Virus record (IMG/VR): IMGVR_UViG_3300010275_000216
Length of the DNA stretch: 46,051 nt
Direction: 5' to 3' (one strand)
Origin: a virus
Lineage: Duplodnaviria > Heunggongvirae > Uroviricota > Caudoviricetes
The notes beneath the pieces were generated by a model that worked only from the letters and a program-made list of their open reading frames with translations, was not told the DNA's origin and did not search any database. Every line of letters begins with the position of its first letter. Within the stretch, counting starts at the first letter, position 1. Shown here one piece after another: positions 35,081-46,051 of this stretch. The translations under genes and the position numbers were made by a program.

Positions 35081-35332
35081 TTATTCTTCTGCAAAAGCTG
35101 AAAAGCCTGCTTTTATTCCGATCTCTTTCAGTGCCTGTAATGAAGTGACAAACTCACCTTCGCGCAAGATAAATCCGTCTGTCACTCGACCATCCACAAA
35201 ATTAATTAACGCAGCCCCATTCTTTCGCAAACACATAATGCGGTAATGACTAACAAGATTTCCATTTTCAACGCACACAGCATAGAGGCCATCTTCACAA
35301 AAAATTTTACGCAGTTCTTCGATGTTCATCAT
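35081..35332 (-). CDS. hypothetical protein (83 aa), Rem-like by length and position
   Basis: ATGATG start with GGAAGGA SD; located between hok and ydfU where rem lies in Qin. Confidence 0.4.
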   Translation of the reverse strand: MMNIEELRKIFCEDGLYAVCVENGNLVSHYRIMCLRKNGAALINFVDGRVTDGFILREGEFVTSLQALKEIGIKAGFSAFAEE

Positions 35333-35462
35333 CAGAATCCTTCCGGATAATTAGCTCTCCCCTTTAAGGGACCATCCCTCTTATCCCTGCGCGCTACTTA
35401 AGTATTTTTGATTCTATTCCGGCACCGTCCAGAACTTCAAACGCGTTGAAAATAAAAACAAA

Positions 35463-35900: not shown

Positions 35901-36319
35901 CTCGCCAATATGAAATCAATCAGTAAGGTGATCCATAAGAACAATAACAAGACAATAAATTGCCATTACAGCCACAATAGCCAGCGTGCATTTGAGAACC
36001 AGCACATAAATCTCCTGCTCTTGACGTATACAGGCACTGATAAATATGTGTCTTCGTGCTCGTTACTTCAATACGTAAGCGTCAGTTGCGCGTAATCAAA
36101 TCAGACAACCGACTTTAAACCAGGGACAAACAGCAGGTAAAATAATCAAACGTTATTTTAAGCCATATCATGGCTTCAAGATTTCCTCTAATTTCAACAA
36201 GATGAGCAGGTCATTGCTTGCACTGATGACCTGCTCATTAATCATGATTATTTGAAAATTAAGGTAGGCGTACTATATATAGAAACACTGCTACGCTCCG
36301 TTGTTGGCATAATATAAAA

Positions 36320-37006
36320 TCATTCCTGCCCTTCTTTACCGTAGTGGAGTTGACCAATTTTGATTAGAGGGCGTCCCTGAGATTTGCGGTGTAGATTGGT
36401 ATCGCGCAGTGAATACACGCAGCCACAATATTCCTGCTGATAGAATTGTTCGCGCTTGCTGATTTCAATCATGCGGGAAGAGCCGCCCTGCTTTCGCCAG
36501 TTATAATCCCAGTACACCATGCCCGGATAATACGCGACGGCTCGCCGTCCACAGTCGTTAACCTGCTGCATATTTTTCCAGCGTGAAATGCCCAGTGAGC
36601 TACTGATCACACTGAAACCATTTTCAGCGGCATACAGCGCAGTCCGCTCAAAACGCATGTCAAAACACATGGTACAACGGATCCCTCGTTCAGGCTCCCA
36701 TTCCATTCCTTTGGCTCGCTCAAACCAGTTGTCTGTGTCGTAATCAGCATCAATAAATGGCACGCCGTGTTGTTTAGCAAAGCGAATATTCTCATCCTTA
36801 CGAATTAAATACTCTTTCTGAGGATGAATGTTCGGGTTGTAGAAAAAGATGGTGTAGTCGATTCCCGAGGCCTGAAGCGCCTCCATCACTTCACCGGAAC
36901 ATGGAGCACAGCAAGAGTGCAGTAATAGTTTTTTTGCCCCGTTTGGGAGCTCCAATTTGGGGCGTTTGAAATCAGCAACAGTCATAAATGTGTTTATGAG
37001 GTTCAT
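36320..37006 (-). CDS. queH: QueH-like epoxyqueuosine reductase (DUF208)
   Basis: N-terminal [13 protein letters not shown], later CTMCFDMRF and QEYCGC motifs typical of DUF208/QueH; start uncertain (ATG 37006 or 36985, ORF-track GTG 37099), no clear SD. Confidence 0.55.
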
Positions 37007-37038
37007 GAAAATAGCAAAAAGTGTAGCATCAGAACGGG

Positions 37039-37341
37039 CTATCGGAAACAGATGTCTAAATCTGGTAATGTCTGCTTTTGATGCAAAGCAGACAACCACG
37101 GCAGCGCACGAAAATCAGCGATAATGTCGGGATTAATAATCGGGTGACGTCCATCACATAGCGAATGTTCCTCTTTCCTGATATCGCTAAATATCGACCA
37201 TTCGTCATTCTTATCGAACCAGAGCATGCGACTGCCACAGCACATGTCGAGAATGGTAGCCGATGTACTCACAGCATCACCTCCCGATAATTCCCCTGAT
37301 AAAACGTCAGAACACGCTGCATAACTTCGCTCTTCCGGCAC
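37039..37341 (-). CDS. doubtful ORF (100 aa, GTG start) overlapping neighbours in other frames; possibly remnant of a frameshifted gene
   Basis: No SD at any candidate start; overlaps 3' end of the 140-aa gene and 5' region of the QueH-like ORF. Confidence 0.2.
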
Positions 37342-37691
37342 TCGCGACAGATTATGTTTAGACGACTGTCGTAGCGGCGTATTTCTCCATCAGGTAATGA
37401 CCAGATAAGGTCCGGATCAACCACAGCAGGTTTCTTCACCTTTGCCCTCGAGAGTTTTTTGCGGGCGTTTTGCCAGTCCTTACGCGCCTGTTCAGACGGG
37501 AATAACCCGTAGCCGGAGTTGTATACATCGCCACTGGCTACCAGCTCTCTGGCAAGAACGCTCATCAGATATCTAGTCGCACCTGTTTTAGCTTCCAGTT
37601 GCCGTAACGTCTCACGACCGCTCTGGCGCACGAGTTCCACCACCTGCCCTTTAATTTTTTCCCGCTCTTCTTGTGTAAAAACTTTTGCCAC
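37269..37691 (-). CDS. hypothetical early-region protein (140 aa), GTG start
   Basis: GTG preceded by strong SD AAGGGGGA; follows replication gene. Confidence 0.5.
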   Translation of the reverse strand: MAKVFTQEEREKIKGQVVELVRQSGRETLRQLEAKTGATRYLMSVLARELVASGDVYNSGYGLFPSEQARKDWQNARKKLSRAKVKKPAVVDPDLIWSLPDGEIRRYDSRLNIICRECRKSEVMQRVLTFYQGNYREVML

Positions 37692-37731
37692 AAGTCCCCC
37701 TTAAAATTACCTCATGACCTGAAATCAACAT

Positions 37732-38697
37732 TTATCCTCTGAAACCAGGCGGAATTTCTGTATCCGGTTCAGAAATATGATTAACACAACGCTGTACAGG
37801 TGAACGTCCCAGGCGGATGACCAGTTCGTCCCATTTTTCGCGGAGCTTTGACGGGCTCATGATGTTTTTTACCCAGAATGGATCTCGCTGAACCCGACCA
37901 AACATTTCGCAAATTTGTCTGTGGCTTCTGCCATCCAGCATCCGCATTGTGCGCACGTCATTGGCCCAGGCAGTCCAGTTAGGCTCTTTTGGTCGCATGA
38001 TCTCGCCATCATCACTGGCTGCCTGTTCGTAGAGACCCACGATCCGCCCCCAGATCCACTGCGCACACGCCAAATCCTCCCTGCTACCCCACTGGCTTTT
38101 TTTCGCACTAAACACAACCGCGTCGGAGTTCCGGGTTAAAAAATCCTGTTCAGTCGTCTGCGGGTCCGGTTGCGAAGCTTCCGGACGAAAAGTGTTTTTA
38201 TTCTCTGTAGTAATCTCTGTTGTATTCTCTGTAAGATCATCAGGCCATTTTGACCCGATGACATTGGATCGTTTTGAACCAATGGAGCGTTTCATTTTGA
38301 CCTCTTCCATCGTGTCATTTTGACCTGATGGAGCGGCGCATTTTGAACCGATGGATTCGCTCAATTTGCCATCATCTAAAAGCTCGCTCTCGTAGTTGAT
38401 CGTGTAGAAATTGGTCATATCGCGCTTTGATTTATTGAGCTTTTCACAACGCAAAAGCCCCAGCTTTTTCAGACTTGCAAACGCGCGCTTTAACGTTGAC
38501 TCTGACCAGAATGGGAACTGTTCCAGCCATTGTTCCGTTGTGTTGTAAATCCAGCGAACACCATCACATTCCATGCCGGAATTGGTATCTCTCAACCAGT
38601 AATGCAACTGCTGCAACACAATGGCTTCATTTAAGCCAATCTTCATCGCAAGCTGTGTGTTTATAACCAGTGGGCGTTCAGCAAAAAGAAGGCTCAT
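37732..38697 (-). CDS. putative phage replication initiation / replisome organizer protein (O-like, about 321 aa)
   Basis: N-terminal winged-helix-like region, position downstream of cro-like/cII-like genes; ORF-track TTG start replaced by ATG 38697. Confidence 0.5.
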   Translation of the reverse strand: MSLLFAERPLVINTQLAMKIGLNEAIVLQQLHYWLRDTNSGMECDGVRWIYNTTEQWLEQFPFWSESTLKRAFASLKKLGLLRCEKLNKSKRDMTNFYTINYESELLDDGKLSESIGSKCAAPSGQNDTMEEVKMKRSIGSKRSNVIGSKWPDDLTENTTEITTENKNTFRPEASQPDPQTTEQDFLTRNSDAVVFSAKKSQWGSREDLACAQWIWGRIVGLYEQAASDDGEIMRPKEPNWTAWANDVRTMRMLDGRSHRQICEMFGRVQRDPFWVKNIMSPSKLREKWDELVIRLGRSPVQRCVNHISEPDTEIPPGFRG

Positions 38698-39199
38698 AAT
38701 TCCATCCAGCTTTTTGTTGGTATTGCTGTCGATACGCAAGTTTGAAAGCAATTGCTTTTTCTATAAGTTCGTCAGTTTCACGATCCACTACGGCAGGATC
38801 AGCAAAAAGCAGTCCGGACTCCACCACATCGCCATATTCTTTGTTTAACCCGGCGATCATGTACGTGATGCTTTTTCCGTCACTAATTTCACGATACAAC
38901 CTGAAATCATTAATCCGGATAGCCTCCATAATTGCAGGCACTAGCGCCGTGAACTTTTCACGCTTATCCCTGGTGTCGATAGCCTTCCAGCGTTCGAATA
39001 TCTTCACTCGATTAACGCCAAGCGCTCGCTGATCAACCGCGCCACCTTCATCTGTGACACGCTGAACATCGATGTTCGGGCGCTCTTTCAAAGCCCAGAA
39101 TGCTTCAGTGATTAATATCGTCGCCTGCTCCTGTGTCATTCCTGGTCGACATATCCAGGCATCCAGAGCCTCACGAGCCTGTTCAGGAGTGATTTTCAT
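38678..39199 (-). CDS. early regulatory protein (173 aa), YdaT/cII-position
   Basis: Immediately follows cro-like gene with overlap; family assignment uncertain. Confidence 0.4.
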   Translation of the reverse strand: MKITPEQAREALDAWICRPGMTQEQATILITEAFWALKERPNIDVQRVTDEGGAVDQRALGVNRVKIFERWKAIDTRDKREKFTALVPAIMEAIRINDFRLYREISDGKSITYMIAGLNKEYGDVVESGLLFADPAVVDRETDELIEKAIAFKLAYRQQYQQKAGWNYEPSFC

Positions 39200-39410
39200 T
39201 GTTCAACCGCCCCGCCCGCTTCGTCTTACGATATTCGTCATAAACCTTGGGATCATACTGAAGCTCGCCGCCAGATGCCTCCTGTAGACGCATCGCGCGA
39301 CCTTCAGGAACCAGCTCTTGCCATTGAGAAACAGCAGATGGGTCAACGCCAGCAGCTTTCGCTACTTTGGCTTTCGTACCGTAAAAATTAATTACGTCTG
39401 ATTTAAACAT
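39183..39410 (-). CDS. dicC: Cro-like HTH regulator, DicC/YdaS family (75 aa)
   Basis: FYGTKAKVAKAAGVDPSAVSQW...SGGELQYDPKVY HTH; ATG 39410 with GGAGGTG SD; divergent from dicA-like repressor. Confidence 0.7.
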   Translation of the reverse strand: MFKSDVINFYGTKAKVAKAAGVDPSAVSQWQELVPEGRAMRLQEASGGELQYDPKVYDEYRKTKRAGRLNNENHS

Positions 39411-39419
39411 CGCACCTCC

Positions 39420-39440
39420 AATATTGAGTTTTCTCAATAC
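39420..39440. promoter_or_regulatory. operator-like inverted repeat TATTGAG-TTTT-CTCAATA in the dicC-dicA intergenic region
   Basis: Perfect 7-bp inverted repeat between divergent repressor and cro-like genes. Confidence 0.55.
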
Positions 39441-39487
39441 TAATCACTCAAGGAATCTCAAGTCAAGGGTTATTAAGATATCTAAAT

Positions 39488-39895
39488 ATGAACGAGAAAA
39501 CTTTAGGTCAACGCATTAGAGAAAGACGTAAGCAGGTAGGCTTAAGTCAAAACGGTTTAAGCAAAGCTGCTGGCGTATCTGGCTCATCAATTTCATTATG
39601 GGAAAGTGACCATACAGCCCCGCGCGGGCAAAATTTGCATCGCCTCGCCGAGGTATTACAATGTTCACCAACCTGGATACTGTTTGGCGACGAGGACAAA
39701 ACACCAGCTCCCCCTGTTTCACTCGATAGTGCCTTAGACTTATCGGAAGATGAGTTAGAGATGCTGCGTTTGTATCGTGCACTTCCTAAATCAGAGCAAC
39801 AAGCACAACTCAGCGAACTCCGCGCCCGCGTTGAGAATTTTAATCGCCTGTTCACCGAGCTATTAGAGGCTCGCAAACGCAACAAGCATCAATAA
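39488..39895 (+). CDS. dicA: prophage repressor DicA (XRE-family HTH, 135 aa)
   Basis: 135 aa; ...QVGLSQNGLSKAAGVSGSSISLWE... HTH and ...LQCSPTWILFGDEDK... segment as DicA. Confidence 0.85.
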   Translation: MNEKTLGQRIRERRKQVGLSQNGLSKAAGVSGSSISLWESDHTAPRGQNLHRLAEVLQCSPTWILFGDEDKTPAPPVSLDSALDLSEDELEMLRLYRALPKSEQQAQLSELRARVENFNRLFTELLEARKRNKHQ

Positions 39896-39956
39896 TCATC
39901 CCTTCACAAAATTTTAAAGCCTTACATTTCAATGTATTGGCTTTATCTTGCGTCAA

Positions 39957-39973
39957 TACTTGAGTTTTCTCAT
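39957..39973. promoter_or_regulatory. second copy of the operator core TTGAGTTTTCTCA, upstream of ydfA; partial inverted copy TGAGAAAACT at about 39997-40006
   Basis: 13-mer identical to the core of the 39420-39440 site. Confidence 0.45.
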
Positions 39974-40087
39974 CAAAAAACCTTGACGAAAAATAATGAG
40001 AAAACTAAATTACCTCCATCAAGACACCGCACGGTGTTCTCAGCAAACAGTTCCGCTACCCCGGCGTTAAGGGGAAATGAGGTCAGC

Positions 40088-40243
40088 ATGGATACTATCG
40101 ATCTTGGCAACAACGAATCTCTGGTATGTGGCGTGTTCCCCAACCAGGACGGCACGTTCACCGCGATGACGTATACCAAAAGCAAAACGTTTAAAACCGA
40201 AAATGGTGCCCGTCGCTGGCTGGAAAGAAACTCAGGTGAGTGA
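40088..40243 (+). CDS. ydfA: YdfA-like small protein (51 aa)
   Basis: MDTIDLGNNESLVCGVFPNQDGTFTAMTYTKSKTFKTENGARRWLERNSGE; ATG with GAGG SD. Confidence 0.7.
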   Translation: MDTIDLGNNESLVCGVFPNQDGTFTAMTYTKSKTFKTENGARRWLERNSGE

Positions 40244-40244
40244 T

Positions 40245-40820
40245 ATGGATTTCGACACAATCATGGAAAAGGCTTACGAAGAATACTTCGAAGGCCTTGC
40301 CGAAGGCGAAGAAGCTCTCAGCTTCAGTGAGTTTAAACAGGCACTCAGAATAAGAATGTGCTCTCACAATGACGCAGAGCACAAATATGAGAAGCAAAAT
40401 CAGACCGCAGAAAATTTTGTTCTGGAACCCGGAGAAACGCTTTTCAAAATTCCCGTTACGTGCCCCATTTGCGGTTTTACATCAGAAGAACTTGACGACT
40501 CCTGTAACAATCAGGAAACAACCAAGTATGTCGAAGATGATACCGAGTGCGCACGAAGAACGATTATATCCACGAGTCCAAACTCCAGGACCAATAAATC
40601 TCACTTTGAGAGGGTGATTAATCCACTCCCCCAAACCAATAAAAAAGATGCCGGAGGACAAAAAACCCAATGGAACAACGGGATATCTGTCAAAAAAAGA
40701 CGTTCCATTAAAGACAAACAACGCAGCGCCAACAACTGTAAGCGCTTTATTCCAGTAATCAATTTTCATGTTCTTAAGCGGATTTATTGGTGGTTGCGAC
40801 ATTGCTTAATGAATCCTTAA
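40245..40820 (+). CDS. YdfB/YdfC-region protein as a single 191-aa ORF
   Basis: Starts MDFDTIMEKAYEEYFEGLAEGEE (ydfB-like) and continues uninterrupted; contains CPICGF. Confidence 0.5.
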   Translation: MDFDTIMEKAYEEYFEGLAEGEEALSFSEFKQALRIRMCSHNDAEHKYEKQNQTAENFVLEPGETLFKIPVTCPICGFTSEELDDSCNNQETTKYVEDDTECARRTIISTSPNSRTNKSHFERVINPLPQTNKKDAGGQKTQWNNGISVKKRRSIKDKQRSANNCKRFIPVINFHVLKRIYWWLRHCLMNP

Positions 40821-41079
40821 AACTGTGGTGATTTTAAGGATACCACCTCGCCTGACGTGGTTAAAAGCAGGCACACAACACGAAAGCGCACGGCGAAGTT
40901 CGTCTCACTGTACGGTGTCGTTAAATTTAATTCGACCGTGCGCTTCCGGTTGTGGCAACCCGCGAAATGGCGCGGCGGTAAGTATGGCGGGGTTATTCCT
41001 TCCCCGTAGAGGACACCGAGTTGTCAGGTTGACCATACGCTTAAGTGACAACCCCGCTGCAACGCCCTCTGTTATCAAT

Positions 41080-41137
41080 TTTCTGGTGACGTTTGGCGGT
41101 ATCAGTTTTACTCCGTGACTGCTCTGCCGCCGTTTTT
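41080..41137 (+). ncRNA. dicF: DicF small RNA (ftsZ-targeting sRNA of the dicB operon) with terminator U-tract
   Basis: TTTCTGGTGACGTTTGGCGGTATCAGTTTTACTCCGTGACTGCTCTGCCGCCGTTTTT matches the DicF sequence as I recall it over 52 of 53 nt; correct operon position between ydfBC and dicB. Confidence 0.8.
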
Positions 41138-41306
41138 AAAGTGAGTTTTGTGATGCGGTGAATGCGGCTAAGCGCACGCGGAACAGTTAAAACCAAAAAC
41201 AGTGTTATGGGTGGATTCTCTGTATCCGGCGTTAATTGTTAACTGGTTAACGTCACCTGGAGGCACCAGGCACTGCATCACAAAATTCATTGTTGAGGAC
41301 GCGATA

Positions 41307-41495
41307 ATGAAAACGTTATTACCAAACGTTAATACGTCTGAAGGTTGTTTTGAAATTGGTGTCACTATCAGTAACCCTGTATTTACTGAAGATGCCATTA
41401 ACAAGAGAAAACAAGAACGGGAGCTATTAAATAAAATATGCATTGTTTCAATGCTGGCTCGTTTACGTCTGATGCCAAAAGGATGTGCACAATGA
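41307..41495 (+). CDS. dicB: cell division inhibitor DicB (62 aa)
   Basis: MKTLLPNVNTSEGCFEIGVTISNPVFTEDAINKRKQERELLNKICIVSMLARLRLMPKGCAQ. Confidence 0.85.
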   Translation: MKTLLPNVNTSEGCFEIGVTISNPVFTEDAINKRKQERELLNKICIVSMLARLRLMPKGCAQ

Positions 41496-41683
41496 ATTCA
41501 GCATTTGCGCTTGTTCTGACAGTTTTTCTTGTTTCCGGAGAGCCAGTTGATATTGCAGTCAGTGTTCACAGGACAATGCAGGAGTGTATGACTGCAGCAA
41601 CCGAACAGAAAATTCCCGGTAACTGTTACCCGGTCGATAAAGTTATTCACCAGGATAATATCGAAATCCCGGCAGGTCTTTAA
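41492..41683 (+). CDS. ydfD: YdfD-like small membrane/lysis protein (63 aa)
   Basis: MNSAFALVLTVFLVSGEPVDIAVSVHRTMQECMTAATEQKIPGNCYPVDKVIHQDNIEIPAGL; start overlaps dicB stop. Confidence 0.75.
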   Translation: MNSAFALVLTVFLVSGEPVDIAVSVHRTMQECMTAATEQKIPGNCYPVDKVIHQDNIEIPAGL

Positions 41684-41776
41684 AACAGTTCCGTAATAAA
41701 TATCCGGTTTCATTCTTATATGCCAGCAATAGCAGGGATTTGTTCATCCTTAAATCTGTCATGAGGTTAAAACAAA

Positions 41777-44248
41777 ATGAGTAAAGTCTTTATTTGCGCC
41801 GCTATTCCTGACGAACTGGCAACAAGGGAAGAAGGCGCTGTGGCTGTAGCCACAGCCATTGAAGCTGGCGACGAACGCCGTGCTCGAGCAAAATTTCACT
41901 GGCAGTTCCTGGAACATTATCCGGCTGCTCAGGACTGCGCTTATAAATTTATTGTCTGCGAGGATAAACCTGGCATACCCCGCCCTGCCCTCGATTCATG
42001 GGATGCTGAATATATGCAGGAAAACCGCTGGGATGAGGAGTCTGCTTCTTTTGTCCCGGTTGAGACTGAATCCGATCCGATGAACGTCACTTTTGACAAG
42101 CTGGCCCCTGAAGTACAGAACGCTGTCATGGTTAAGTTCGACACATGTGAAAACATCACCGTTGATATGGTTATTAGCGCACAGGAATTGTTGCAGGAAG
42201 ACATGGCAACATTCGACGGACATATCGTTGAAGCGTTGATGAAAATGCCAGAAGTTAACGCCATGTATCCGGAGCTTAAGTTGCACGCCATTGGGTGGGT
42301 TAAGCATAAATGTATTCCTGGTGCTAAATGGCCCGAAATTCAGGCAGAGATGCGCATCTGGAAAAAACGTCGCGAAGGTGAACGCAAGGAAACCGGAAAA
42401 TACACGTCTGTTGTTGATCTCGCCCGCGCCAGAGCCAATCAACAGTACACTGAAAATTCAACAGGAAAAATCAGCCCGGTCATTGCTGCCATTCATCGCG
42501 AATACAAGCAGACATGGAAAACACTGGATGACGAACTGGCCTACGCTCTCTGGCCTGGTGATGTGGATGCCGGAAACATTGACGGCAGCATCCATCGCTG
42601 GGCAAAAAAAGAAGTTATCGACAACGACCGCGAAGACTGGAAGCGTATCTCGGCATCAATGCGCAAACAGCCTGATGCCCTTCGCTACGACCGCCAGACT
42701 ATTTTTGGCCTTGTCCGTGAGCGTCCGATCGACATTCACAAAGATCCCATAGCACTGAACAAATATATCTGCGAATACCTGACGACAAAGGGCGTGTTTG
42801 AGAATGAAGAAACAGACCTGGGCACTGTTGATGTTCTCCAGTCATCAGAAACACAAACTGATGCAGTGGAAACTGAGGTATCTGATATCCCAAAAAATGA
42901 AACCGCGCCGGAAGCTGAACCATCTGTAGAGCGTGAGGGGCCGTTCTATTTCCTCTTCGCAGATAAGGACGGAGAAAAATACGGTCGCGCAAACAAACTT
43001 TCTGGTCTGGATAAGGCACTGGCTGCTGGCGCCACTGAAATCACAAAAGAAGAATATTTTGCCCGAAAAAATGGCACATACACGGGCTTACCGCAAAATG
43101 TAGATACCGCTGAAGATTCAGAACAACCAGAGCCGATAAAAGTTACCGCTGACGAAGTAAACAAAATTATGCAGGCAGCCAATATCAGCCAGCCTGACGC
43201 CGATAAGTTGCTTGCTGCATCACGTGGTGAATTTGTTGAAGGGATTAGTGACCCGAATGATCCGAAATGGGTTAAGGGGATCCAGACCCGCGATTCTGTG
43301 AACCAGAACCAGCATGAATCGGAACGGAACTACCAAAAAGCGGAACAAAACAGCACAAATGCGTTACAAAACGAGCCAGAAACGAAACAGCCTGAACCAG
43401 TGGCGCAACAGGAAGTGGAAAAAGTCTGCACCGCCTGCGGTCAGACCGGCGGCGGCAACTGCCCTGATTGTGGCGCGGTGATGGGCGACGCAACATACCA
43501 AGAAACATTCGATGAAGAGTATCAGGTTGAAGTTCAGGAAGATGATCCGGAGGAAATGGAAGGCGCTGAACATCCACACAAGGAGAACACTGGCGGCAAT
43601 CAGCATCACAATAGCGATAATGAAACTGGCGAGACGGCAGATCACTCAATTAAGGTGAACGGTCATCACGAAATCACATCCACCAGCAGGACGTGTGACC
43701 ATCTAATGATCGACCTTGAAACCATGGGAAAAAATCCTGATGCCCCGATCATCTCAATAGGTGCAATATTTTTCGATCCGCAAACCGGAGATATGGGACC
43801 GGAATTTAGTAAGACTATCGATCTGGAAACTGCTGGCGGAGTCATTGATCGGGACACCATTAAATGGTGGCTTAAGCAATCACGCGAAGCGCAATCTGCC
43901 ATTATGACCGATGAAATCCCGTTAGATGATGCACTGTTACAATTGCGGGAATTTATCGACGAAAACTCCGGTGAATTTTTTGTTCAGGTTTGGGGAAATG
44001 GAGCCAACTTCGACAACACGATTTTGCGCCGTTCATACGAACGGCAGGGGATCCCCTGCCCGTGGCGTTACTACAACGATCGCGATGTACGCACAATCGT
44101 TGAGCTGGGGAAAGCCATAGACTTCGATGCCAGAACGGCTATTCCATTCGAAGGTGAGCGCCATAATGCACTTGATGACGCCCGTTACCAGGCAAAATAC
44201 GTTTCAGTTATCTGGCAAAAACTGATCCCGAGTCAGGCTGATTCTTAA
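41777..44248 (+). CDS. large early protein (823 aa): YdfE-like N-terminal region, central zinc ribbon, C-terminal DnaQ-like DEDDh 3'-5' exonuclease domain
   Basis: C-terminal motifs MIDLETMG (Exo I), WGNGANFDNTIL (Exo II), HNALDDARY (Exo III); CTACGQTGGGNCPDCG zinc ribbon; position after ydfD. Confidence 0.7.
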   Translation: MSKVFICAAIPDELATREEGAVAVATAIEAGDERRARAKFHWQFLEHYPAAQDCAYKFIVCEDKPGIPRPALDSWDAEYMQENRWDEESASFVPVETESDPMNVTFDKLAPEVQNAVMVKFDTCENITVDMVISAQELLQEDMATFDGHIVEALMKMPEVNAMYPELKLHAIGWVKHKCIPGAKWPEIQAEMRIWKKRREGERKETGKYTSVVDLARARANQQYTENSTGKISPVIAAIHREYKQTWKTLDDELAYALWPGDVDAGNIDGSIHRWAKKEVIDNDREDWKRISASMRKQPDALRYDRQTIFGLVRERPIDIHKDPIALNKYICEYLTTKGVFENEETDLGTVDVLQSSETQTDAVETEVSDIPKNETAPEAEPSVEREGPFYFLFADKDGEKYGRANKLSGLDKALAAGATEITKEEYFARKNGTYTGLPQNVDTAEDSEQPEPIKVTADEVNKIMQAANISQPDADKLLAASRGEFVEGISDPNDPKWVKGIQTRDSVNQNQHESERNYQKAEQNSTNALQNEPETKQPEPVAQQEVEKVCTACGQTGGGNCPDCGAVMGDATYQETFDEEYQVEVQEDDPEEMEGAEHPHKENTGGNQHHNSDNETGETADHSIKVNGHHEITSTSRTCDHLMIDLETMGKNPDAPIISIGAIFFDPQTGDMGPEFSKTIDLETAGGVIDRDTIKWWLKQSREAQSAIMTDEIPLDDALLQLREFIDENSGEFFVQVWGNGANFDNTILRRSYERQGIPCPWRYYNDRDVRTIVELGKAIDFDARTAIPFEGERHNALDDARYQAKYVSVIWQKLIPSQADS

Positions 44249-44320
44249 TGTTCAACTGTCGCCGGTTGTGACTGGTATTCTGCAACCGGCGCTCGTCTGA
44301 TGTAAGAGATAAAGAAATCG

Positions 44321-44572
44321 ATGAGCGAAGTAATCATGATTGTCTCTCCCGGCAAATGGGTATCCGAAGAGCAGTTAATTGCGCTGAAAGGAATAAAAAA
44401 AGGTACGTTAAAAAAGGCCCGGGAAAAATCGTTTATGGAAGGAAGGGAATATAAGCATGTCGCTCATGACGGTATGCCATGGGATAACAGTCCATGCTTT
44501 TACAACCTGGAAGAAATTGATCGCTGGATTGAGCGCCAGGCATCAGCGAGACCAAGACGTCATCTTACTTGA
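44321..44572 (+). CDS. xis: putative excisionase / DNA-binding protein (83 aa)
   Basis: Small gene immediately upstream of and co-oriented with integrase. Confidence 0.5.
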   Translation: MSEVIMIVSPGKWVSEEQLIALKGIKKGTLKKAREKSFMEGREYKHVAHDGMPWDNSPCFYNLEEIDRWIERQASARPRRHLT

Positions 44573-44606
44573 CTAAAAGCCACACTAACTAATGAGAGAA
44601 GTTGAA

Positions 44607-45887
44607 ATGAAATATCCGACAGGCGTGGAAAACCATGGAGGGAAATTACGTATCTGGTTTGTTTATAAAGGCGTAAGAGTCAGGGAAAATCTGGGGGTTC
44701 CTGACACAGCAAAAAACAGGCGCGTTGCAGGTGAACTACGCTCCTCTGTTTGTTACGCAATAAAAACTGGTGTTTTCGACTATGCAAAACAGTTTCCCTC
44801 CTCACGCAATCTGGAAAAATTTGGTGAGGCCCGACAAGATTTAACCATAAAAGAACTGGCTGAAAAATTTCTGGCACTGAAAGAAACTGAAGTCGCCAAA
44901 ACATCACTCAACACATACCGTGCCGTCATCAAAAATATCCTGAGCATAATCGGTGAAAAAAATCTTGCCTCATCGATTAATAAAGAAAAATTACTGGAGG
45001 TTCGTAAAGAGCTACTGACTGGATACCAGATCCCCAAAAGTAACTATATTGTTACACAACCAGGGAGATCGGCTGTAACTGTAAATAATTACATGACAAA
45101 TCTTAACGCCGTGTTCCAGTTTGGTGTTGATAACGGTTACCTGCCAGATAATCCGTTTAAGGGGATCTCGCCATTAAAGGAATCAAGAACCATTCCGGAT
45201 CCTCTTTCGCGGGAGGAATTTATCCGTCTTATCGATGCGTGCAGAAATCAGCAAGCAAAAAATTTATGGTGTGTTTCTGTTTATACTGGCGTTCGCCCTG
45301 GTGAGCTGTGTGCACTTGGATGGGAGGACATAGATCTGAAAAATGGAACAATGATGATCAGGAGAAATTTAGCAAAAGACCGTTTCACGGTACCAAAAAC
45401 ACAGGCGGGAACCAATCGGGTCATTCATCTTATTAAGCCAGCAATCGACGCTCTCCGGAGTCAGATGACATTAACGAGACTGAGCAAAGAGCATATCATT
45501 GATGTTCACCTCAGAGAGTATGGCAGAACAGAAAAACAAAAATGCACCTTTGTTTTTCAACCTGAAGTGTCAGCGAGAGTAAAAAATTATGGTGACCATT
45601 TTACCGTTGACTCAATAAGGCAGATGTGGGACGCAGCGATAAAACGTGCCGGACTCCGCCATCGAAAATCATATCAGTCGAGACATACTTATGCCTGCTG
45701 GTCGCTGACAGCTGGTGCTAACCCGGCATTTATAGCAAACCAGATGGGCCATGCAGATGCGCAAATGGTATTTCAGGTATACGGAAAATGGATGTCTGAA
45801 AACAATAATGCACAGGTAGCTTTGTTAAATACACAGTTAAGCGAGTTTGCCCCAACCATGCCCCATAACGAAGCAATGAAAAATTAA
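44607..45887 (+). CDS. int: tyrosine recombinase / phage integrase
   Basis: C-terminal catalytic region with R...HxxR...Y (SRHTYACW, GHAD...VYGKW); ATG 44607 with GAGAGAAG SD; outermost gene, transcribed toward window end. Confidence 0.85.
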   Translation: MKYPTGVENHGGKLRIWFVYKGVRVRENLGVPDTAKNRRVAGELRSSVCYAIKTGVFDYAKQFPSSRNLEKFGEARQDLTIKELAEKFLALKETEVAKTSLNTYRAVIKNILSIIGEKNLASSINKEKLLEVRKELLTGYQIPKSNYIVTQPGRSAVTVNNYMTNLNAVFQFGVDNGYLPDNPFKGISPLKESRTIPDPLSREEFIRLIDACRNQQAKNLWCVSVYTGVRPGELCALGWEDIDLKNGTMMIRRNLAKDRFTVPKTQAGTNRVIHLIKPAIDALRSQMTLTRLSKEHIIDVHLREYGRTEKQKCTFVFQPEVSARVKNYGDHFTVDSIRQMWDAAIKRAGLRHRKSYQSRHTYACWSLTAGANPAFIANQMGHADAQMVFQVYGKWMSENNNAQVALLNTQLSEFAPTMPHNEAMKN

Positions 45888-46051
45888 TTTAATATTTATC
45901 AAATAGTTGACACGTATGACTCTTGAAATCCATAAATTCAAGCGCAGTGCCCAACCATCCCGATACTGCTGCTTTCACCAAATCCTTAGTACTTCTTTCG
46001 TGTTTTTCTATTGTCATAATGGTTATCTCTAAAAAAGAGGTAAGATGCGTA

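Follow-up and report, generated by a model that had tools for sequence, protein, structure and literature searches.

Introduction

The locus analysed here is closest to the DicA/DicC switch of Qin, a prophage of Escherichia coli K-12. The literature on Qin includes Bejar et al. (1986, 1988), Yun et al. (2012; PMC3441716) and Ragunathan et al. (2023; PMC10448788). Operators have been stated for the dicA-dicC and the dicA-dicBp intergenic regions of Qin, with reference to Bejar et al. (1988) and Yun et al. (2012), three of them being assigned to each control region by sequence inspection (PMC10448788). K-12 DicA binds the operator Oc in vivo and represses dicC. Single-base mutations of Oc abolish the binding, and no binding of DicA was found at Om or Oa (PMC3441716). 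The sites at dicBp are described as predicted operators, Oc being the only site shown to bind DicA in vivo (PMC10448788). Deletion of dicA derepresses dicBp 22-fold (PMC3441716, PMC10448788). The repression of dicBp by DicA is relieved by Rem (PMC10448788).

Two further systems are relevant. In the C2 repressor of phage P22, Val33 and Gln37 read the TTAA half-site (PMC5175364), and the centre of the P22 operator acts through indirect readout, according to the title of Watkins et al. (2008) as cited in the same paper. The temperate phage mEp460_ev081, described as functional, has dicAC, dicBF and rem (PMC10448788).

In this study we analysed a stretch of viral DNA of 46,051 bp (hereafter the window). 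Its switch region is 99.3% identical to phage HannyBb and 98.3% identical to mEp460_ev081.

Results

Genes and proteins of the locus

The genes considered below are as follows.

39183 to 39410, minus strand: dicC-like (Cro-like) gene, 75 aa; Pfam P22_Cro, E 6e-17; NCBIfam NF007282 DicC, 167.6 bits (cutoff 130)
39488 to 39895, plus strand: dicA-like repressor gene, 135 aa; Pfam HTH_3, E 2e-15; NCBIfam NF007257 DicA, 239.4 bits (cutoff 101), full length 1-135
40088 to 40243, plus strand: ydfA (DUF1391; Pfam, E 3e-29), first gene of the presumably repressed operon
41081 to 41132, plus strand: DicF small RNA; Rfam RF00039, 72.5 bits (gathering score 48)
41307 to 41495, plus strand: dicB cell-division inhibitor, 62/62 residues identical to K-12 DicB
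about 35084 to 35335, minus strand: rem homologue (83 aa aligned to K-12 Rem by tblastn, 96% identical), which may encode the antirepressor acting on the DicA-like repressor

The dicC-like gene is divergent from dicA, and its edge lies 78 bp from the dicA ATG. The operon downstream of dicA also contains ydfD. The N-terminal domain of the DicA-like repressor matched P22 C2 (PDB 1ADR) with an E value of 8e-16, gapless and collinear over residues 1-72. A Pfam search of the 135-aa repressor returned HTH domains only, with no Peptidase_S24 or LexA-like autocleavage domain. From these comparisons the repressor is predicted to act like C2 at the DNA, but it does not belong to the autocleavable class of P22 C2 and lambda CI. 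The locus thus holds the features of a Qin-type DicA/DicC switch, that is, a repressor of the DicA family, a divergent DicC, an Oc-type operator, sites at the dicB operon, and a non-cleavable repressor together with Rem.

The strong conservation of Rem is accompanied by only 56% identity between the DicA-like repressor and K-12 DicA. The C-terminal half of the repressor (LQCSPTW..FGDEDK, ALPxSEQ, RARVxNFNxLF) is conserved across immunity types. Taken together, these observations suggest that Rem targets the conserved C-terminal part of the repressor, and Rem could then act across immunity types. A scan for LexA boxes (CTG-N10-CAG) gave scattered matches, mostly inside long ORFs, and none upstream of rem, so that SOS control is unsupported.

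A separate observation concerns ydfB. A 205-aa ORF (40203-40820) starts upstream of the ydfB start, takes in the N-terminal part of YdfB and then runs on, at the place of ydfB and ydfC in K-12, into unrelated sequence that has a CxxC motif. The gene is annotated here as a truncated pseudogene in RefSeq, and the long ORF as a hypothetical protein in the HannyBb record.

A palindromic motif at three places

A perfect 7-4-7 palindrome, TATTGAGTTTTCTCAATA (TATTGAG-TTTT-CTCAATA), was read at 39422-39439. It lies between the start of the minus-strand dicC-like gene (39410) and the dicA ATG (39488), which bears out the original prediction of a perfect inverted repeat between these divergent genes. 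The 13-mer core TTGAGTTTTCTCA occurs exactly at 39424-39436 and again at 39960-39972, after dicA and upstream of ydfA, as had also been predicted. A third copy, TGAGAAAACTAAA on the plus strand (39997-40009), is inverted and carries one mismatch. The partial inverted copy expected 30 nt beyond the second one does exist, and only the distance was approximate. The second and third copies start 37 nt apart, with a gap of 24 nt and 36 bp from centre to centre.

The original prediction had also called for a scan of the whole window. At no more than one mismatch the 13-mer was found three times in the window against 0.09 expected, and 0 of 100 shuffled sequences reached three matches. The pattern TGAG-W4-CTMA was found at the same three places and at no others in the window (0.20 expected). 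When the spacer was left free, the enrichment disappeared: TTGAG-N4-CTCA with one mismatch was found 11 times in the window, with 10 expected. The A/T spacer therefore belongs to the signal. The scan with the loose pattern gave no evidence of further operators elsewhere in the window, for example near rem.

Proposed operators and predicted promoters

The elements of the two control regions are listed below. Palindromic sites are given without strand.

39422 to 39439: operator 1 (equivalent of Qin Oc), the perfect palindrome, which aligns with K-12 Oc TTGTTAGTCATAACTAACAA
39437 to 39466, minus strand: predicted sigma-70 promoter of the dicC-like gene; -35 TTGACT (39466-39461), 18-nt spacer, -10 TAGTAT (39442-39437); 9/12 in a consensus scan
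39446 to 39463: degenerate middle site (Om-like), a weak candidate; right half CTCAAGT good, beside the -35; left half ACTCAAG poor
39471 to 39488: Oa-like palindrome TATTAAG-ATAT-CTAAATA from a repeat search, ending at the dicA start codon
39915 to 39945, plus strand: hairpin resembling a terminator, 3' of dicA and with a T-rich run behind it; RNA fold -11.3 kcal/mol, z -4.26, 0/200 shuffles as stable
39957 to 39974: operator 2 (promoter-distal), TACTTGAG-TTTT-CTCATCA, just 5' of the -35; counterpart of K-12 ATGTTAGCTATAGCATACAA
39983 to 40011, plus strand: predicted ydfA-DicF-dicB promoter (dicBp equivalent); -35 TTGACG (39983-39988), 17-nt spacer, -10 TAAATT (40006-40011); 9/12 in a consensus scan
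39994 to 40011: operator 3 (promoter-proximal), TAATGAG-AAAA-CTAAATT; left half intact, right half identical with the -10 hexamer

At the predicted dicC promoter, operator 1 overlaps both the -10 and the expected start. The -35 of this promoter (AGTCAA on the plus strand) is nearly invariant across the family. The right half of the Om-like site follows the immunity type, being CTCA here, CTAA in types C and D and GTTA in type F. In type F the middle site is a full palindrome.

Each half of the Oa-like palindrome differs from operator 1 at the type-specific base. The palindrome is invariant between the E. coli and Buttiauxella type-A loci and is conserved among type-A and A2 loci, without the TTGAG half-site of this allele. 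It may be a weak site or one preferred by DicC. The sequence TATTAAGATATCTAAATA (window 39471-39490) shares 13 of 18 positions, the ATAT centre included, with the consensus operator of P22. This palindrome directly adjoins the dicA ATG, before which no Shine-Dalgarno sequence can be seen, and the dicA mRNA may therefore be leaderless, like that of lambda cI from PRM. A simple terminator scan of 39150-40300 made no call, although the hairpin after dicA folds significantly.

The predicted promoter upstream of ydfA aligns with K-12 dicBp (TTGACC-17-TAATCT). Operators 2 and 3, both imperfect palindromes, bracket its -35, and operator 3 overlaps its -10. In every immunity type examined the right half of operator 3 coincides with the -10. 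The third copy of the motif is therefore only partial because its promoter-side half is constrained to be the -10 hexamer. The 4-bp A/T centre (TTTT/AAAA) is conserved in the sites here. The dicC-dicA interval holds one perfect and two degenerate sites with centres 24 and 25 bp apart, and the region upstream of ydfA two recognisable sites with the 36-bp spacing given above. A third operator 5' of operator 2 was considered and rejected, there being only an isolated half-site-like GTCAATA (39952-39958).

Comparison across immunity types

For comparison we used 18 loci of 8 immunity types, taken from E. coli genomes and from contigs with one genome per species. They cover seven genera (Escherichia, Citrobacter, Enterobacter, Buttiauxella, Superficieibacter, Rahnella and Symbiopectobacterium) and were aligned on the conserved promoter landmarks. 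In every type the Oc position was taken by a palindrome, and two related sites stood on either side of the -35 of the downstream promoter, the half-sites changing in step. The operator forms at the Oc position and downstream include TTGAG-N4-CTCAA in this type, to which a Buttiauxella locus with 74% protein identity also belongs, TGTTAG-N6-CTAACA in the K-12, C and E types, CCTTAG-N6-CTAAGG in the D type and TAAC-N4-GTTA in the F type.

In K-12 Qin, for instance, Oc stands beside dicC, and upstream of ydfA operator ATGTTAGCTATAGCATACAA is followed by the -35 TTGACC and then by ATGTTAGTCATGGCTAATCT. The co-variation of the two regions was analysed by permutation with one representative per type, using a score for 20-mers centred on the palindrome, in which the central 4 bp do not count. 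The cognate pairing of Oc with the downstream region scored 181, a value reached by 2 of 40,320 permutations. A comparison of the two intergenic regions by their best 14-mer was dropped as too noisy in A+T-rich DNA (background 10-12/14). In the type-A relatives from E. coli O103 and Buttiauxella the operator cores are kept, and the surrounding intergenic DNA has diverged. The HTH region of DicC shares the cassette described below and co-varies too, so that the comparison alone does not separate DicA sites from DicC sites.

The operator was also followed in IMG/VR, which contained 120 exact matches to a 16-mer. Seventy-eight of them adjoin a DicA homologue, 77 of these at an offset of -65 or -64 from the dicA ATG, and 74 of the 78 DicA-bearing contigs carry two more sites after dicA. 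The remaining 42 matches come from unrelated contigs, mostly of low GC, and look accidental, the collection being very large.

Two groups of loci deserve a remark. The contigs L008 and L009, from MAGs labelled 'Bacillota bacterium' and 'Veillonella parvula', have a dicA 100% identical to that of the window and the same operators. Both are most likely E. coli prophage contigs that were binned wrongly. Frameshifts or stops break dicA in three chromosomes of E. coli and Shigella flexneri (L026-L028), which keep the Oc-like palindrome upstream of it. These loci could be decayed switches or assembly errors.

An exchangeable cassette and a conserved leader

Comparison of the locus with K-12, type C and type D showed 93-100% identity in the left flank, 10-80% inside 39300-40018, and 97-100% from 40019 onward. 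Since the collapse of identity is confined to this interval, the exchanged part carries the HTH part of dicC, dicA and both operator sets.

39300 to 40018, no strand: immunity cassette of about 720 bp (dicC HTH part, operators, dicA, dicBp operators)

Both boundaries are sharp. The left one falls within dicC, between the variable HTH part and a near-invariant C-terminal part (LVPEGRAMRLQEASGGELQYDPKVYDEYRK...). The N-terminal HTH part of DicC thus varies by immunity type, and its C-terminal part is conserved. The right boundary falls directly after the -10 of the dicBp-type promoter.

The leader between this promoter and ydfA (40019-40087) is a feature of its own, with 97-100% identity across heteroimmune types. 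It contains a perfect palindrome, ACACCG-CA-CGGTGT (40024-40037), and, just 3' of a boxA-like GTTCCGCTA (40050-40058), a hairpin CCCC-GGCGTTAA-GGGG (40059-40074). The stem in other genera is CCCTG/CAGGG, GCC/GGC or GCCT/AGGC, or the whole hairpin gives way to one with a lambda boxB-like GAAAGA loop. From its sequence the leader looks like a nutL-type antitermination site. No obvious N-like gene was seen, and a search of 36000-46051 with Rfam at gathering thresholds, in which DicF was the sole match, placed no RNA family over the leader.

Recognition helix and operator specificity

The recognition helix of the repressor reads SGSSISLWES here and SHVSVSQWER in K-12 DicA. Residues 32, 33 and 37 are Gly, Ser and Leu here, Asn, Val and Gln in P22 C2, and His, Val and Gln in K-12 DicA. 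The K-12, C and D types share His, Val and Gln at these positions and have TTAG half-sites. Types C (L004/L015) and D (L006/L017) also agree fully in the DicA recognition helix, AHVTISQWER, and in the DicC HTH segment, AAGVRLASVAAW. At the outer operator bases they part, with TGTTAG in C and CCTTAG in D, and this difference tracks changes in helix 2 and in the N-terminal arm of DicA. Since this pair shares helix 3 and differs in the operators, there should be determinants of specificity outside helix 3.

One may go further and regard the DicA family as a natural series from which the specificity of the P22 C2-type domain can be read. Ser33 and Leu37 would then dictate TTGAG rather than TTAAG or TTAG, the outer bases would depend on helix 2 and the N-terminal arm, and the Oa-like palindrome (39471-39488) would possibly be preferred by DicC or another factor. 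We consider this extension conceivable and rather doubtful.

Discussion

We propose, with a probability of roughly 0.85, that the three copies of the motif are operators of a Qin/mEp460-type lambdoid prophage immunity switch, at both promoters of which the DicA-like repressor would act. As far as sequence comparison goes, the original prediction of a single repressor for both the cro-like and the dicB-operon promoter is supported by the overlap of the sites with both predicted promoters, the co-variation, the shared cassette and the K-12 precedent.

The switch may be pictured as follows. A dimer of the DicA-like repressor would most likely occupy 18-bp sites of the form T-A-W-T-G-A-G / W4 / C-T-M-A-W-T-A. 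At operator 1, over the -10 and start of dicC, it would block the dicC (cro-like) promoter, and by analogy with K-12 its presence there may also stimulate transcription of dicA (PMC3441716). Occupation of operators 2 and 3 would exclude RNA polymerase, and ydfA, DicF, dicB and ydfD would be silent in the lysogen. The Cro-like DicC probably binds the same sites in the opposite sense and would flip the switch. Because the repressor is without an autocleavage domain, the expected route of release is not RecA-dependent cleavage but the Rem antirepressor or flipping or noise of the switch (PMC10448788).

Would the sites, on the other hand, serve the Cro-like DicC only, with the DicA-like repressor recognising something else? 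Cro and the repressor share their operators in lambdoid phages. The HTH segment of DicC is also type-specific and lies within the same cassette. In addition, overexpression of DicC represses dicA in O157:H7, a result cited in PMC10448788. K-12 DicA, however, binds the positionally homologous Oc, and single-base changes there abolish the binding (PMC3441716). The 7-4-7 geometry, moreover, fits the operator of P22 C2, of which the N-terminal domain of DicA is a close homologue (PMC5175364). Types C and D, with the same DicC HTH segment, have different outer operator bases, which go with helix 2 and the N-terminal arm of DicA, and the repressor, not DicC alone, should therefore read the sites. 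It thus seems improbable that DicC is the only reader.

Two other readings would dispense with the phage regulators. The repeat might be a coincidence of chance or composition in A+T-rich intergenic DNA, or a recombination scar, without any regulatory role. In its favour are the high background of the 14-mer comparison and the 42 unrelated, mostly low-GC viral contigs with the exact 16-mer. This reading, already disfavoured by three sites in the window where 0.09 are expected, would have to explain positions that are fixed relative to the promoters across genera, sequences that change together in 8 types, and cores that are kept amid diverged flanks. We give it almost no credence. A host nucleoid protein such as H-NS might instead bind the sites and silence the promoters in place of the phage repressor, given that the regions are A+T-rich and that Cnu/H-NS affects the binding of DicA at the dicA-dicC region of K-12 (PMC3441716). 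A factor common to all E. coli, however, would need no type-specific palindromes co-varying with the repressor allele, and the palindromic 7-4-7 form is typical of dimeric HTH repressors. Silencing by such a host protein alone is very unlikely. We hence retain the reading of the sites as operators of the DicA-like repressor.

The idea of a repressor acting at two promoters is not new, since Bejar et al. had suggested the layout for Qin in 1988 (cited in PMC10448788). The present locus is best explained by the model published for Qin, with a heteroimmune allele in place of the K-12 one and no new mechanism. What is specific to the present case is the operator sequence of the mEp460/HannyBb immunity type, a description of which was not found in the searchable literature. 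The allele is present, with a coverage of at least 80% of the queried 1.15 kb, in about 800 of 5,426 complete E. coli genomes. For one immunity type of a widespread E. coli prophage family, the sequence of the operators and the layout of the promoters are now given. They predict which prophages are heteroimmune and how the toxic division inhibitors dicB and DicF would be kept silent in those strains. In addition, the co-varying series of proteins and operators could be used to study or to engineer the specificity of C2-type HTH domains.

Comparison with known systems

The repressors of the Gifsy type resemble the one described here in being short and non-cleavable and in having an antirepressor gene, here rem, on the same element (PMC10448788). 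They differ from it in that no LexA-type control of rem was found here in the CTG-N10-CAG scan of its upstream region. The likeness to the OR/OL system of lambda CI and Cro is one of architecture. In both cases repressor and cro genes diverge from shared operators, a second operator set stands at the leftward early promoter, the switch is bistable or would be so, and an exchangeable imm cassette is bounded by both operator sets. The DNA specificity, in contrast, is unrelated, the interval between the divergent genes has here one strong and two degenerate sites, and induction, which is by RecA in lambda, is proposed to be by an antirepressor here.

In P22 C2 the N-terminal domain is homologous and the operators are likewise 18-bp two-fold sites with 7-bp arms and a 4-bp A/T centre. 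The P22 consensus operator ATTTAAGATATCTTAAAT reads ATTTAAG-ATAT-CTTAAAT, as compared with TATTGAG-TTTT-CTCAATA here (PMC5175364; PDB 1ADR, 2R1J). The half-site is thus TTAAG in P22 and TTGAG here, and residues 33/37 are Val/Gln in P22 and Ser/Leu here. C2 is a protein of 216 aa with a C-terminal LexA-like autocleavage domain, which the 135-aa repressor lacks, and the left-hand promoter of P22 has three adjacent operators, whereas there are two, 36 bp apart, at the corresponding promoter here.

Qin of K-12 is the nearest of these systems. The gene order (dicC, dicA, ydfA, (ydfB), DicF, dicB, ydfD), the 135-aa repressor without a cleavage domain, the operator beside the dicC start over the dicC promoter, the two sites at the -35 and -10 upstream of ydfA and the presence of a Rem homologue are alike. 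Identity is 100% for DicB and 93-100% in the flanks. The difference lies in the repressor, with its 56% identity, and in its operator, TTGTTAG-N6-CTAACAA in K-12 and TATTGAG-N4-CTCAATA here. Since both the recognition helix and the operator differ, heteroimmunity with K-12 Qin is predicted. While Qin is a cryptic remnant, the switch described here belongs to a full-length phage genome of about 45 kb.
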